Origin: a virus | Lineage: Duplodnaviria > Heunggongvirae > Uroviricota > Caudoviricetes | IMG/VR virus record: IMGVR_UViG_3300042398_001452 | Length of the DNA stretch: 64,000 bases | Reading direction: 5' to 3' (one strand) | Notes under the pieces: model-generated | Databases searched by the model: none | The model's input: only the letters and a program-made list of their open reading frames with translations | Told to the model about the DNA's origin: nothing | Made by a program: the position numbers and the translations under genes | Part shown: one piece after another, positions 3,741-40,822 of the stretch | Layout of the letters: every line of letters begins with the position of its first letter | How positions within the stretch are numbered: the first letter of the stretch is position 1

Positions 3741-5258
3741 ATGGAAAAAAAGATTAAAATTCTATCGTTCAACCAATTTATGAACGAACAAGAAACAGTC
3801 CAAGGAGCAACTGGATCTACTACTACTACTGATACTAGCAAACCAGATAGACCTGAAACAGACAGAGAGGCTAAGTCTAGAATAGCATTCGATATAATAA
3901 AAGGTATTTTTGGTGACGTTGAGGGAGTAACAGGTGGTGTTGATAGTATGATAGAACAAACCAAAGAGGTTAAAGAATCTTTGCCTTATAGAGGATGCGG
4001 AACAAACGAACCTTATAAATTAGAAAAAACACCCTTATCTGTTCTTACTATAAAGATATTATTAAACTATTTACAGAAAGAAGGCAAAGGTGATTACAAT
4101 AAATCTATAAAAGAACTGGCAGAAAAAAGGGCAGTTATATTAGGAGTTAGAAGTAGACTTGATGTAAAAAAGGAAACAGCAAATCAAGATAGATTCTGCG
4201 ATGCCTTATATTATATCCCTGCAAATGCTAGTGATGGGACAGGTAGTTCTTCTGCTACTGGACCTACAGGATCAACTGGAGCAACAGGAGCTAAAACAGC
4301 AGATAAAGGAAAGAAAAATGAATCTTATCTTTTTGATATAATAGATCAAAAAATAAATGAACTAGAATATATTTCAGAATCAGGGGTATGGACATTCCAA
4401 CAATTTGAGGATCTTAAAATTAAGAGAGACAATATACTAGAAAGTAGAGAACTTTTAGAAAATGGTGAAATAACTGAGGATGAATTTATAGAGATAAATG
4501 AGGACTTTCTAGGAGTAGGTAAGATTTTACAAGGATTAGGAGGAGATAAGACTGGAAAAAAATATGGTCCAACTGGTCCAACTGGTCCAGCGGGATCAAC
4601 AGGAGGTACAGGAAGTACTGGAGCTGTAAACATGGGGGATATGGTAAATCCTTATCAGATAACAACAGTAGCCAGCTTAGCTTATTATGGGAAAAAACCT
4701 ATGAATCCTAAAGGTGTTGGTATAAAGCTACCAGGGGATACAGCTTATGTACTACAAGAAGCAAGTTTAGGGGGTAAGCAAAAATACAAAATGATGGTGG
4801 AATCCCAAAAAATTAAAGTTGGAAGATACCCTATAGGTGTTATTAAATATGAGACCTATAAACCTGCTGAAGAATACGAAGAAAGCTGCGGAATGCACAT
4901 ACACAGATCATCAACTAATGGTGTTGGTATTTGTATAGGTCCTTGGTCTGCTGGATGCCAAGTTTTTGCTGATAATAATGAATGGAACGACTTCATATCT
5001 AAAGCAACTAATGAATCAATGAATTCTGGTAAATTCATTTATGCTTTAATCCAGCTAGATGATATACCTAAAGAAGTTCTTGAATCTGCTTTAATCGGAG
5101 TTGAATACACTGGTCCTAAGGAGGTTGTTCAGGCAACAGGATCAACAGGATCAACAGGATCAACAGCAAGCACAGATACAAAAAAATCTACTAAGCAAGA
5201 TTATGCAGGTAAGCTAAAGAATTTTGGTAGATTAAAGGATCAGAAAGGGGAAGATTAG
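3741..5258 (+). CDS. Putative YkuD/L,D-transpeptidase-like protein with GxT low-complexity tracts and capsid-targeting-like N-terminus
   Basis: Start set at ATG 3741 after GATATATA 3728-3735; KILSFNQFMNEQE; C-terminal HIH..WSAGCQVF (H-x-S-x-GC); GATGSTG/GPTGPTG repeats. Confidence 0.5.
   Translation: MEKKIKILSFNQFMNEQETVQGATGSTTTTDTSKPDRPETDREAKSRIAFDIIKGIFGDVEGVTGGVDSMIEQTKEVKESLPYRGCGTNEPYKLEKTPLSVLTIKILLNYLQKEGKGDYNKSIKELAEKRAVILGVRSRLDVKKETANQDRFCDALYYIPANASDGTGSSSATGPTGSTGATGAKTADKGKKNESYLFDIIDQKINELEYISESGVWTFQQFEDLKIKRDNILESRELLENGEITEDEFIEINEDFLGVGKILQGLGGDKTGKKYGPTGPTGPAGSTGGTGSTGAVNMGDMVNPYQITTVASLAYYGKKPMNPKGVGIKLPGDTAYVLQEASLGGKQKYKMMVESQKIKVGRYPIGVIKYETYKPAEEYEESCGMHIHRSSTNGVGICIGPWSAGCQVFADNNEWNDFISKATNESMNSGKFIYALIQLDDIPKEVLESALIGVEYTGPKEVVQATGSTGSTGSTASTDTKKSTKQDYAGKLKNFGRLKDQKGED
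5134..5167 (+). repeat. 9-bp coding tandem repeat (CAACAGGAT)n encoding TGS repeats
   Basis: Visible directly, about 4 copies. Confidence 0.8.
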
Positions 5259-5286
5259 AAACTTTCCCTGTAGTTTTCCATAAAAT
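5258..5286 (+). promoter_or_regulatory. Putative class II promoter GAAACTT-N16-TAAAAT
   Basis: Same bipartite spacing recurs at 11061(+), 57760(+), 25732(-), 26941(-), 28191(-). Confidence 0.45.
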
Positions 5287-5307
5287 GTTTATATCATAAA
5301 GCATTAA

Positions 5308-6723
5308 GTGGAAAATAAAATAACAATCTCAGATCAAATAAATACGGATTATAGGAAGTATGCTCTTTATGTTATACAGAGTAGAGGTATACCTAATTTC
5401 TATGACGCATTAACACCGGTACAAAGATTAATATTACAAAATTCTCCTAGCACTTTTAAAAAAACAGTGGGTGTAATAGGAGAGGTTTTTAGTACAGGAT
5501 TATACCATCACGGAGATTCTTCTATGGCTCAGGCCATATCCAAATTAGCAAGGCCTTTTTCTTGTTCAGACCAAATATTACTAGGAGATGGTTTTTTTGG
5601 AACACCTGTAAATCCTGTTCCTTCTGCTCCTAGATATACACAGGTAAAAATATCCAATAAGTACAAGGAGATAATAGAAAAATATAAAGACCTAAATATA
5701 CCAAACGAAGAGGGAGGATTTGATTGGATACACGTTGATTATCCTGTTGGATTATCCACACATATAGTTGGTATTGCTGTGGGATATAAATCGAACATAC
5801 TTCCAAGAAAACCAGAAGATGTAGTTTCTTATCTAGAAGGAAATAAATCCAAGAAGATTAAACCATATTTCAGAGGATTCAAAGGAAAGATAAGTAAGAT
5901 GGATTCACTTAAATCTGCTTGGTTGATAGAAGGAGATATTGATATAGATTTCCATTCTAGAACATTTAAGATAAATTCTATATCACCACTACAGAGATAT
6001 GAATCTTTCTTTATTAGACTTAATAATCTCTTAGACCGTAGCGGTATAAATTATAAAATGGATAATTTCTCGACTGATGATGTAAAAATATCTATAAAAT
6101 TTAGATGTACTGACCAAGAATTTAAAGATATCTCAAATCTAGTAGCTAAGGAGACTAAACAAATAGTAACAGAGAATATAGTTTTTGTTAGGAACGGATC
6201 AGTTCTGGAATATGATTACATAGAGGAATATTTAGAAGACTTTATTGTACAGAGAGAAAAAACAATACTAAAAAGGTTAGAGAGGGATTTAATTTATCTA
6301 ACAGAAAATTTAGAATTTCTTGAAGCTAAGCTTAAATTTCTTACTTTTATGCAAGAGAAAAAAAGAGGGAATGATGAGGTCTTAGAATTTTTGTCCAATT
6401 ATAAGAAAGAAATATCTAGAAGACTTGAATCTATATCTCTTGTAAAATTAACGAAGGAAGAAATAATTAAGACCAAAGAGGAAATTAATTCAGTTAAATC
6501 TGATATAAAGAATAAGAACATTGATATTAAAAATCAGAAAGATAGGGTTAAAAAAGTAGAGAAAGAGAATTCTTTAATAAGAAAAACATCTAAATCTAGA
6601 ATGACATCACTTTTAGAAGATGTAAGAGAAGATTTCCATAATGGAATAAGAATTTTTGATCCAGAGGATGAAATTTTAGAAGATGTAGAACAAGAAAATG
6701 AATTAAATATAGAAAATGAGTAA
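5308..6723 (+). CDS. Type II DNA topoisomerase subunit A (GyrA/ParC/T4 gp52-like)
   Basis: YALYVIQSRGIP..DALTPVQR, YHHGDSS, SAPRYT (catalytic Tyr), GIAVGY; GTG start. Confidence 0.9.
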   Translation: MENKITISDQINTDYRKYALYVIQSRGIPNFYDALTPVQRLILQNSPSTFKKTVGVIGEVFSTGLYHHGDSSMAQAISKLARPFSCSDQILLGDGFFGTPVNPVPSAPRYTQVKISNKYKEIIEKYKDLNIPNEEGGFDWIHVDYPVGLSTHIVGIAVGYKSNILPRKPEDVVSYLEGNKSKKIKPYFRGFKGKISKMDSLKSAWLIEGDIDIDFHSRTFKINSISPLQRYESFFIRLNNLLDRSGINYKMDNFSTDDVKISIKFRCTDQEFKDISNLVAKETKQIVTENIVFVRNGSVLEYDYIEEYLEDFIVQREKTILKRLERDLIYLTENLEFLEAKLKFLTFMQEKKRGNDEVLEFLSNYKKEISRRLESISLVKLTKEEIIKTKEEINSVKSDIKNKNIDIKNQKDRVKKVEKENSLIRKTSKSRMTSLLEDVREDFHNGIRIFDPEDEILEDVEQENELNIENE

Positions 6724-39587: not shown

Positions 39588-39706
39588 ATAAACATTCCTT
39601 TACTTATCATTAAGTTAAATAATCTACTATTATCTATCTTATCTCCTTGAATCTCGTAGGAGTATCCCTCGTTATCTAATATCTCTATAAACTCTTCTCT
39701 AGTCAC
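39584..39706 (-). CDS. 40-aa zero-repeat member of the 22-aa repeat family (not in track)
   Basis: GTG start; MTREEFIEILDNEGYSYEIQGDKIDNSRLFNLMISKGMFM = family N-cap joined to family C-cap. Confidence 0.65.
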   Translation of the reverse strand: MTREEFIEILDNEGYSYEIQGDKIDNSRLFNLMISKGMFM

Positions 39707-39739
39707 TATCTATATACCTTTTTTTGGATATATAAATAT

Positions 39740-40822
39740 ATGTCAAGAATACTAAATTTCAAGGATTTCATAATATTAGAATCCAACGAACAAGGAAAGA
39801 TCTATACGAAACCGGGGGATCCTTATGAATATAAGGTTATAAATAATGTATGGATGACCAGAGGTAAAGGAATAAGAGACTGGACATCCCTAGAGAATAA
39901 TAAAGCGGCAACAGAAAAACTAGATGCTAGACATCCAGAAGCAAGAATAAAAACAGCAGGATCTAATCCCACAATGAGCAATACTTCAGCTAGCTCTTCC
40001 CCTATACAAAATCAAAATTCTTCCGCTCCAGTAAGTGGTTCAACTATGATATGTTCTCACGCAGGAATGTGGGATGGACCAGGAGCATCAAGAGCAGAGA
40101 ATTGCTTAAAGAACATAGAAGAAAATATCAAAGCCAAAATAGACATGGTGGAGATAGACATACAAATAACTGCAGACGGGGTTCCTGTACTTTTCCATGA
40201 TAACACACTAGATGCAAAAACTAATTCAAGAGGAAAAATACAAAACATGAATTGGAACGATGTTAAAAACATCTCTTATAAAGCTGATCCCTCCCAAAGA
40301 ATATGCTCACTACAGGAAGTGGTTAATCTCGTCAAGAAATACTCGTCCAAGACAATGCTACAACTTGACAAATGTGACGCTAAAGAATTAGCCATTATTA
40401 ATAGGATAGGGATGTTAAAGGGAATAGAGAATCAAATAGTAGCTAAGGGGCAAACATATGAACCACCTTCTATAGTTAGGACAATGGGCATTAAATGGAT
40501 GCCTATCCTTCCTACATCTAATGTTGGGAGTATGTCTAGTAAACAATTAGTCGACACAATAATATCTAAAGCAACACCAGGATTCTTTGAATACCAATTC
40601 AGCGATTCTGATACCTATGTTGTTAATGGATATATTTCAGATACTCTAAGGGGCAAAGGTGTTTATCCTATGGTTGTTGCAGTTGGAGGAACTAAAAATA
40701 CAAACGGGGCTTCTTATAGGGGAGATTCCAGAACATCTTGGGAAAAGATAATCAAAAATATAAACCCAAGTCTAATAATGACCAACAAACCAAACCAGCT
40801 CAAATCTTATCTTTCTAGATAA
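39740..40822 (+). CDS. Glycerophosphodiester phosphodiesterase (GDPD) domain protein with capsid-targeting-like N-terminus
   Basis: MSRILNFKDFIILES; SHAG..AEN...MVEIDIQITADGVPVLFHD.TLD...LMTNKP; GATATATA 39727. Confidence 0.8.
   Translation: MSRILNFKDFIILESNEQGKIYTKPGDPYEYKVINNVWMTRGKGIRDWTSLENNKAATEKLDARHPEARIKTAGSNPTMSNTSASSSPIQNQNSSAPVSGSTMICSHAGMWDGPGASRAENCLKNIEENIKAKIDMVEIDIQITADGVPVLFHDNTLDAKTNSRGKIQNMNWNDVKNISYKADPSQRICSLQEVVNLVKKYSSKTMLQLDKCDAKELAIINRIGMLKGIENQIVAKGQTYEPPSIVRTMGIKWMPILPTSNVGSMSSKQLVDTIISKATPGFFEYQFSDSDTYVVNGYISDTLRGKGVYPMVVAVGGTKNTNGASYRGDSRTSWEKIIKNINPSLIMTNKPNQLKSYLSR

Follow-up and report, generated by a model that had tools for sequence, protein, structure and literature searches.

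Envelope-type proteins behind a T4-like capsid-targeting tag in an uncultured giant phage: probable cargo for delivery into the host envelope

A 64,000-nucleotide stretch of the viral record IMGVR_UViG_3300042398_001452 (Caudoviricetes; the whole stretch is called the window below) comes from an uncultured giant T4-like phage, and it encodes 14 proteins that share a short N-terminal tag resembling the capsid targeting sequence (CTS) of phage T4. Among them are wall-cutting, wall-binding and membrane-inserting proteins, which are probably shot into the host envelope together with the phage DNA. The explanation that we favor, and to which we give an even chance, is that the tag is a T4-type CTS propeptide leading to head packaging, cleavage and ejection, and that a conserved subset of the cargo acts on the envelope at entry. 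The sequence anatomy, domain identities and conservation, together with a protease found in relatives, are described below; from these we infer packaging, cleavage, ejection, the site of action and the role of secreted partner proteins. The capsid-cargo part of this explanation is well founded on the anatomy of the sequences, if unproven. Proteins are named by the first coordinate of their genes.

The 14 tagged open reading frames (ORFs) lie between 312 and 40822 and start at 312, 3741, 8690, 10053, 14808 (minus strand), 15395 (minus strand), 16348, 16694, 18881, 21078, 23196, 28258, 33704 (minus strand) and 39740; every ORF named in a first-pass annotation of this DNA was confirmed at its coordinates. 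The shared N-terminus consists of a hydrophobic residue followed by [FYL]-x-x-[FY] inside the first 13 residues, and in 14/14 tags, tabulated from the N-termini, an [ILVM]-x-Glu ends at residue 11-17. The loose aromatic core was present at 16 of 95 N-termini, where its internal frequency would give about 3. Tags of this form include F-N-E-F-I-N-E↓S and that of 16348, Y-E-Q-Y-I-A-E↓K (the arrow marks the putative cut). The T4 capsid targeting sequence is MKTYQEFIAE (PMC8442874); here targeting depends on positions 4 and 7 and processing on positions 8 and 10, with cleavage by gp21 after L/I-x-E (PMC9026906).

None of the 14 tagged proteins has a hydrophobic N-terminus in a Kyte-Doolittle scan, and none has a signal peptide, in agreement with the first-pass observation that the GH19, OmpA-like and GDPD proteins start with the tag instead. 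The untagged proteins 22653, 24730 and 31243 and the SLT transglycosylase 12137 start with classical hydrophobic signals, and untagged exported proteins of the same phage combine Sec-type signals with TAnnTTTG promoters. This contrast supports the capsid-cargo reading; the argument from a missing signal peptide is weak for 15395, since GH19 enzymes are normally endolysins that have none, and cytoplasmic GDPDs exist. The view that tagged proteins with recognisable domains are mostly of envelope type was upheld by Pfam, PDB, PHROG and VIA-align for the GH19, YkuD, OmpA-like and GDPD calls. The envelope-type proteins, with the untagged secreted neighbours of the OmpA-like pair and the basis of each entry, are as follows.

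3741..5258, plus strand: tagged 505-aa protein, tag end M-N-E↓Q at residue 16, putative YkuD-fold domain at 295-460 (AF2 and VIA-align)
14808..15344, minus strand: tagged 178-aa protein with one predicted transmembrane (TM) helix at 74-92, tag end M-N-E↓G at residue 17 (Kyte-Doolittle scan)
15395..16105, minus strand: tagged putative GH19-type muramidase, tag end V-L-E↓S (PDB phmmer, PHROG)
16694..18847, plus strand: 717-aa hydrophobic-hairpin protein, N-terminal tag end V-D-E↓S, C-terminal tag copy (sequence)
18881..21028, plus strand: 715-aa paralogue of 16694 with the same two-ended tag layout (sequence)
21078..22604, plus strand: tagged OmpA-like protein of type A, tag end I-N-E↓S, domain at about 346-460 (Pfam, NCBIfam, PADLOC)
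22653..23081, minus strand: untagged 142-aa protein with a Sec-type signal and a TAnnTTTG-type promoter, cognate neighbour of 21078 (sequence)
23196..24668, plus strand: tagged OmpA-like protein of type B, tag end V-N-E↓S, domain at about 320-425, predicted interface strand at 438-448 (Pfam, complex prediction)
24730..25182, minus strand: untagged 150-aa protein with a Sec-type signal, predicted partner of 23196 (complex prediction)
39740..40822, plus strand: tagged GDPD-domain protein, tag end I-L-E↓S, HAG in place of HRG (Pfam, PDB)

Most tagged genes are also preceded by a common DNA box. The motif GATATATA occurs in 16 copies, compared with 7.1 expected, and 11 of the 16 sit no more than 45 nt upstream of tagged starts, at 299, 3728, 8663, 15370 (minus strand), 16125 (minus strand), 18850, 21045, 23161, 28231, 34152 (minus strand) and 39727. 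One example is the following.

23161..23168, plus strand: GATATATA box, late-promoter-like (motif scan)

A twelfth copy (16167) heads a small ORF that is followed by 16348 and 16694. This small ORF (16190-16345, plus strand) has 51 codons and lies right behind the box; 16348 and 16694 downstream of it have no boxes of their own, and the three may form a single late transcript.

The shared N-terminus always stands beside a GATATATA box and a start codon, and the paralogues 21078 and 23196 have an almost identical 5' leader, as might be expected if the feature belonged to the nucleic acid, as a translation-initiation or downstream-box element or as a recombination cassette junction of late genes. 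This reading seems very improbable, however, given that the motif is conserved at the amino-acid level across orthologues only 30-40% identical in their bodies, recurs at C-termini far from any start codon and always ends in the protease-type [ILVM]-x-E. Tag conservation exceeds that of the protein bodies: the tag of the OmpA-like family is nearly invariant at a mean column identity of 41%, the closest full-length homologues of the YkuD domain (290-510 aa) are tagged whereas the widespread versions of about 200 aa in other phages are untagged, and GDPD orthologues in two further contigs retain the tag, the GATATATA box and the HAG variant. Conservation at the protein level and the C-terminal copies argue against a purely nucleic-acid role.

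The T4-type propeptide explanation calls for a matching protease, and the gene was looked for in four IMG/VR contigs of 148-248 kb that carry homologues of the hairpin proteins (G001-G004, with the block loci L001-L004). In L001, L003 and L004 the genes follow one order, namely a 16348-like gene, one or two hairpin genes, a tagged OmpA-like gene and an opposite-strand signal-peptide gene; L002 has the small tagged gene and a hairpin gene only, with no OmpA-like gene nearby. Peptidase_S77, the T4 gp21-type family, was found above the Pfam cut-off in three of the four (G002-G004, carrying L002-L004), and the same three have a Gp23-type capsid gene. In G003 and G004 the S77 gene lies close upstream of the Gp23-type capsid gene (1.4e-38 and 1.9e-37). 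The N-terminal region of the Gp23-type capsid protein holds IIE↓S and LNE↓S sites, so that these genomes combine tag, cut site and protease.

In the same head gene cluster of G003, directly upstream of the S77 gene, lies a 440-aa ORF (L006 96-1418). At roughly residue 50 it has the tag-like L-S-F-E-D-F-Y-S-V-I-E-E↓S-Y, and after this come Gly-Gly-Thr repeats similar to those in 3741. In both G003 (L006) and G004 (L005), Peptidase_S77 occupies the N-terminus of a frame that stays open for more than 640 aa up to the end of the stretch analysed (678-699 aa in the genome search), compared with 198 positions for the Pfam domain, which suggests a fused C-terminal part, perhaps scaffold-like.

Under the favored explanation, the tagged proteins would be expressed late in infection from GATATATA promoters, and the aromatic-x-x-aromatic of the T4-type targeting propeptide would bind the prohead scaffolding core. 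A gp21-type (Peptidase_S77) prohead protease would then cut after [ILVM]-x-Glu and free the cargo inside the head; the hairpin proteins, tethered by a tag at each end, would be released by two cuts, and the cargo would exit the virion together with the DNA. The conserved subset acting on the envelope would comprise the block 14808-24668 and the YkuD-fold enzyme, and perhaps the GDPD. Within it, the L,D-carboxypeptidase-like and GH19 enzymes would trim and cut the wall, the hairpin and single-TM proteins would insert into membrane, and the OmpA-like domains would attach to the wall. The early Sec-exported 22653 and 24730 would then bind the OmpA-like proteins in the periplasm, which would either neutralise them once the phage has entered or bar related phages from superinfecting.

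The C-terminal domain of 3741 (295-460) was assigned to no family by Pfam, PDB phmmer/hmmsearch or Foldseek, and Tlde1_dom gave weak matches in 2/44 members of its family. It has 172 relatives at E below 0.001, and in 44 sequences of the family H94, S109 and C112 were invariant, forming a Ser-x-Gly-Cys motif plus His. When the AF2 model of the domain (pLDDT 88) was compared with the PDB exhaustively by VIA-align, 17 of the top 17 rows were YkuD-fold enzymes (Z 6.1-4.0), headed by the L,D-carboxypeptidases Pgp2 6xj7_A (Z 6.1, root-mean-square deviation [rmsd] 3.7, 105 aligned), Bd1075 (Z 5.9, rmsd 3.6, 103 aligned) and Csd6 (Z 5.9, rmsd 4.2, 110 aligned), with Tlde1a at Z 4.4 (rmsd 4.0, 103 aligned). 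With Z values this modest, it is the consistency of the list, together with the catalytic motif, that carries the call; by structure only, the domain is predicted to have the YkuD fold of an L,D-carboxypeptidase-like enzyme. The protein also carries Gly-x-Thr repeats and, internally, KKNE↓S and ISE↓S sites. The catalytic domain appears to be interrupted: a segment at 133-159 (ILGVR...FCDALYYI) resembles, in a weak local match, the N-terminal part of the untagged homologues of about 200 aa (IIGVR...FDD) and is followed by an insert of about 140 aa with the Gly-x-Thr repeats and both sites, and then by the rest of the domain.

The second wall enzyme, 15395, gave PDB phmmer matches to 8p8e (8e-4) and to the SPN1S endolysin 4ok7, and matched PHROG 181 (endolysin) at 6e-12. 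Its alignments to 8p8e and 8xcl span the Glu-Ser-Gly region and the DGYKYRGGGYTQLTG signature, with the acidic residues kept. In Pfam there was no match to the GH19 model and only a sub-threshold one to Phage_lysozyme2. By similarity, 15395 may be classed as a GH19-type muramidase or lysozyme. The GDPD protein 39740 matched Pfam PF03009 above the gathering score (2.1e-17) and PDB 3i10 over the full-length domain (6.8e-18, residues 96-358), and is likewise a putative GDPD by domain similarity.

A GH19 enzyme next to a single-TM protein could also mean that the envelope-type tagged proteins act at lysis, with 15395 as endolysin, 14808 in a holin-like role and the pairs of OmpA-like protein and secreted partner as regulators or spanin-like factors, the tag serving some other late purpose or packaging being incidental. 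We regard this as unlikely. In its favor, phage enzymes of the GH19 type carry endolysin annotations (PHROG 181; PDB 4ok7) and as a rule have no signal peptide, 15395 and 14808 are neighbours on one strand with a late box for each, and no other cytoplasmic endolysin was identified within the window. However, one tag with its cleavage site is common to 14 or more unrelated proteins, tags at both ends next to Asn-Glu↓Ser suit a removable propeptide rather than lysis proteins, and an SLT enzyme with a signal or anchor is encoded separately in the window. A plain lysis cassette of 14808 and 15395 was not adopted because homologues of 14808 accompany the hairpin block, upstream of the hairpin and OmpA-like genes in L001 and L003, without a GH19 neighbour.

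The membrane part of the cargo consists of 14808, for which the single TM helix noted before was confirmed, and of two hairpin proteins that are 40% identical. Both hairpins described in the first-pass annotation were found, but only 18881 has the 715 residues given there for both, 16694 having 717. In this 717-aa family the Kyte-Doolittle scan shows a strongly hydrophobic hairpin at 233-275, and 39 metagenomic homologues, none of them named, were collected. The C-terminus repeats the tag (Y-I-x-x-F-E-x-F) straight after KKNE↓S, an arrangement kept down to about 30% identity; a cut at this site would free the C-terminal tag just as the N-terminal cut would free the N-terminal one. The AF2 model of the family was poor (mean pLDDT 49.7), and VIA-align on this low-confidence model returned only generic helical bundles (best Z 9.7). 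A profile search of the PDB gave no match and thus no gp14-, gp15- or gp16-like or other ejection protein. A PT-TG or SseC identity was rejected, its atlas scores (0.78) being at noise level.

The first-pass annotation had combined the lytic, wall-anchoring and membrane proteins into a multi-component trans-envelope conduit. In its fullest form, the ejected hairpin, single-TM, OmpA-like and lytic proteins would build a DNA-conducting channel across the outer membrane, wall and inner membrane, like the ejectosome of T7 gp14/15/16 or P22 gp7/16/20. The single-TM, hairpin and OmpA-like genes do form a conserved cluster; lysis, wall binding and membrane insertion each have a representative; and the hairpin and OmpA-like genes are both duplicated, as hetero-oligomers would be. 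Nothing links the tagged proteins physically to one another, however. The hairpin family shows no sequence or fold likeness to ejection proteins in the PDB, given its poor model, and the GH19 enzyme is found in the block only in this window, being absent from the corresponding position of L001 and L003 and hence not a fixed component.

The tail genes bear on the same channel. Relative G003 encodes a gp5-like hub (phrog_430, 1.5e-14) and a gp6-like wedge (phrog_219, 4.2e-22) of a T4-type baseplate, from which a contractile tail is most likely for this phage group, although tail sheath and tail tube Pfam models had no match in the relatives and the gp25 model at most a weak one. A contractile tail would cross the outer envelope itself, so that a podovirus-style conduit is not required. 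The gp5-like hub ORF is only 295 aa long and matches just the OB part of the hub-lysozyme profile, which may leave room for wall cutting supplied from elsewhere, such as the head. On balance, a conduit is quite improbable, and its assembly found no support here.

The OmpA-like domains gave Pfam values of 2.5e-7 for 23196, above the cut-off, and 1e-4 for 21078, below it; NCBIfam and PADLOC models of OmpA/MotB back both, down to 1e-8. PADLOC returned nothing other than these MotB-like matches. Both proteins may be taken to have an OmpA-like fold by domain similarity. In the window and three relatives, each OmpA-like gene is paired with its secreted neighbour, and the pairs fall into three types that are always found together (7/7 pairs); this co-travel may be mere inheritance as a unit.

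The physical pairing was addressed by complex prediction with 23196 residues 15-490, 24730 residues 30-150 and three controls. The pair scored 0.86, a value that expresses the model's own confidence, and the best of the three controls 0.19. The mark applied was reached by 58/80 solved complexes and 2/110 mismatched pairs, counts that are only rough because our own alignments were used. Between runs at least 95% of the contacts agreed, with pLDDT of the partner at least 89. The predicted interface core pairs strand 438-448 of 23196 with strand 86-94 of 24730, and these strands are conserved within type B and different, on both sides, in types A and C. Predicted binding to a Sec-exported protein points to the periplasm for 23196, and with this one independent computational support an envelope destination of the conserved subset appears plausible.

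A phage-encoded, early 24730 cannot help the first infection. Natural readings of its role would be that it neutralises the cargo after entry or excludes superinfecting relatives. Extended to the full, this becomes a scheme in which a T4-like giant phage of Bacteroidota packs a CTS-tagged envelope-entry kit that is released ahead of the DNA into the periplasm, and secreted cognates capture the OmpA-like anchors of incoming relatives, giving superinfection exclusion and matched-pair evolution. We consider this complete scheme rather unlikely as a whole.

Several points weigh against the favored explanation. The protease and capsid genes were seen in relatives only, and in the closest relative contig (G001, 81% complete) neither an S77 protease nor a Gp23-type capsid gene was detected. 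A cultured relative of the tagged-cargo phage was sought in the GenBank phage records and none was found. The capsid-targeted internal proteins known from T4 act in the cytoplasm, against host defences, and release of cargo from a contractile-tail phage into the periplasm is a proposal. The strongly hydrophobic hairpins might enter the membrane of the producing cell and not be packaged; 15395 adjoins the single-TM 14808 in what looks like a lysis cassette, and GH19 enzymes are usually endolysins. The complex score, as a confidence value of the model, belongs with these points. Finally, two motifs are altered. In OmpA, Pal and MotB an Asp and an Arg hold the peptidoglycan stem peptide. The OmpA-like family keeps the Arg (R377 is invariant) and has an invariant Gly-x-Ala-Ser where solved OmpA domains have Gly-x-Thr-Asp; with the canonical Asp lost, its activity may differ from the family norm. 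The two were earlier called OmpA peptidoglycan-binding proteins, and of this the domain similarity stands, but the canonical Asp is replaced by Ser. In 39740, His-Ala-Gly aligns with His-Arg-Gly of 3i10, as it does in the two orthologues, and with this Arg lost the GDPD activity may also differ from the norm.

Such changes would suit packaged proteins whose envelope-like domains have degenerated or taken on another use, either as structural or scaffold material inside the head, in an inner-body-like mass, or for action in the cytoplasm once injected, like the cargo of T4, P1 and phiKZ-type phages. The lost Asp and Arg, the Gly-x-Thr repeats, internal cleavage-type sites and apparently interrupted catalytic domain of 3741, and a weak ParB-like lead for 312 all fit this. 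The YkuD-fold domain keeps its invariant His and Cys, however, the GH19 enzyme keeps its signature motif and acidic residues, and predicted binding of an OmpA-like protein to a Sec-exported one is hard to square with a purely cytoplasmic or in-capsid role, which leaves such re-use improbable. For the earlier proposal that the proteins reach the periplasm by ejection from the capsid, the CTS-like tag, the S77 protease of the relatives and the predicted 23196-24730 binding speak in favor, but the lead for 312 indicates that the cargo may be mixed.

The remaining tagged proteins, and one untagged enzyme for contrast, are listed here.

312..1058, plus strand: tagged 248-aa protein with a tag-like C-terminus too (sequence)
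8690..9547, plus strand: tagged 285-aa protein (no Pfam match; weak PHROGs ATPase match only)
10053..11057, plus strand: tagged 334-aa protein with an ILGRF C-terminal module (sequence)
12137..12667, plus strand: untagged SLT lytic transglycosylase with a hydrophobic N-terminal signal or anchor (contrast case; sequence)
16348..16674, plus strand: small tagged protein, tag Y-E-Q-Y-I-A-E (sequence)
28258..28899, plus strand: weakly tagged 213-aa protein with an ILQRF C-terminal module (sequence)
33704..34129, minus strand: tagged 141-aa protein (no Pfam match)

The tag of 16348 is the closest to T4 Y-Q-E-F-I-A-E, and a 16348-like gene lies directly upstream of a hairpin gene in 4/4 relatives. 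The lead for 312 is a ParB_N-like protein atlas score of 0.84-0.85, to be read as a lead only; if real, 312 would be a DNA-directed and not an envelope-directed cargo. Pfam gave no match for 312, 8690, 10053, 14808, 16348, 16694, 18881, 28258, 33704 or the secreted partners, and PHROGs gave none for 10053, 14808, 16694 or 18881.

The C-terminal modules of the form I-L-G/Q-R-F-(N/K) occur at 10053-11057, 28258-28899, 33011-33700 (minus strand) and 34701-35480 (minus strand), of which 33011 and 34701 are paralogues with the C-terminal module only. The pattern h-h-x-x-F-x-x-F of the module is similar to the N-terminal tag and to the tag copy at the C-terminus of the 717-aa proteins, and the module may be the same address in a C-terminal version. 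A paralogous family of about 130-150 aa (37871-38314, 40815-41201 and 41198-41587, all on the minus strand), with several copies also in L002 and L003, starts with M-T/S-R/I-E-E-F-I-E/K and has repeats of S-L-T-S-L-P-x-G-V-x-F-x-N. Its N-terminus resembles the T4 CTS core and may belong to the fold instead; 41198 has its own GATATATA box.

As to the source of the DNA, phage replication genes are encoded in the window, and a DNA polymerase fragment (7485-8654) is 35-39% identical to its closest matches, uncultured 460-735 kb phages and Prevotella phage Lak-A2, with T4-like cyanophages as more distant matches. Untagged genes are preceded by TAnnTTTG-like promoter motifs, which we take to fit a Bacteroidota host; the host is probably a member of this phylum. 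The GenBank phages (50,697 records) contained no near-identical relative of the window and no protein-level relative of the hairpin and OmpA-like proteins, and neither an IMG/VR scan with 23196 alone as query nor an IMG/VR search with the GH19 15395 found a relative.

The G+C content is 31% up to about 41 kb and 38-43% beyond, rising over 42000-56000, and no tagged gene lies past 40822. The arm of higher G+C contains a paralogous pair of about 514 aa (51948 and 54127) with Gly/Glu/Lys low-complexity runs, after an ATPase-like gene at 50815. Near the other end, 2317-3387 (plus strand) reads as a phage DnaJ-like protein, with the HPD motif of a J-domain and Cys-x-x-Cys-x-Gly-x-Gly zinc-finger repeats.

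The envelope block, the two-ended tags, the predicted fold of 3741, the altered OmpA and GDPD motifs and the predicted periplasmic partner are new here. Head-borne proteins acting on the envelope are known from short-tailed phages. If the favored explanation is true, a T4-type tag that packs wall and membrane proteins would link CTS cargo with envelope-acting ejection proteins in a contractile-tail giant phage, and would bear on how such phages move DNA across the wall and inner membrane. Being short and transferable, and having a defined cut site at one or the other end of a protein, such a tag would also be a simple handle for predicting virion cargo in uncultured phages, and the predicted pairing with secreted proteins offers a testable case of phage-versus-phage exclusion at entry.

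Among known systems, the CTS proteins of T4 are similar in that a short N-terminal tag with aromatics three apart and then I/V-x-Glu stands on unrelated proteins, and 14/14 tags here match the key residues at targeting and processing positions. This phage group also has gp21-type protease and gp23-type capsid genes (3/4 relatives), and the C-terminal propeptide of the 717-aa family recalls T4 Alt, which is processed at both ends (PMC9026906). The cargo differs: wall hydrolases, OmpA-like and strongly hydrophobic proteins here, small basic anti-restriction proteins and an ADP-ribosyltransferase in T4. The tag here has 11-17 residues, frequently with Asn-Glu↓Ser-Tyr at its end, and is itself repeated in the C-terminal propeptide; the host probably belongs to the Bacteroidota, and packaging is predicted. 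The E/inner-body proteins of phiKZ, 201phi2-1 and SPN3US offer another parallel: in these large phages a diverged homologue of gp21 trims numerous proteins inside the head after Glu (PMC9026906). Their propeptides are long, however, with no shared decapeptide, and are cut at S/A/G-x-E as opposed to I/V/L/M-x-E here; the GenBank phage collection yielded no relatives of the hairpin and OmpA-like proteins.

With T7 gp14/gp15/gp16 and P22 gp7/gp16/gp20 the tagged proteins would share a head-internal position and action on the envelope after ejection; T7 gp14-like proteins and gp16 are precedents for packaged proteins in which TM helices are predicted and a muralytic domain occurs (PMC8954989). Neither in sequence nor in fold was a likeness to them found (the hairpin model being of low confidence), the lytic functions here are on separate proteins, the T7 and P22 proteins are not described as having a CTS-type tag, and the T4-type baseplate genes of G003 differ from a short non-contractile tail, the tail type being deduced from those genes. 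Pgp2, Csd6, Bd1075 and Tlde1 match the YkuD fold predicted for 3741 (Z 6.1, 5.9, 5.9 and 4.4; rmsd 3.6-4.2; 103-110 aligned) and the invariant His...Ser-x-Gly-Cys, whereas in sequence only the weak Tlde1_dom matches in 2/44 were found, and the 3741 domain seems interrupted by its repeat-rich insert of about 140 aa. Tlde1, a type VI secretion system effector, is moreover an enzyme delivered into the periplasm of the target cell. T4 Imm and Sp and HK97 gp15 are superinfection-exclusion proteins of phages that act in the envelope. The target here would differ, being an OmpA-like protein carried in the head, and there are three cognate types of pair; no homology is claimed. The logic is alike, an early envelope-placed phage protein that hinders an incoming phage, and the predicted 23196-24730 pair would fit it.

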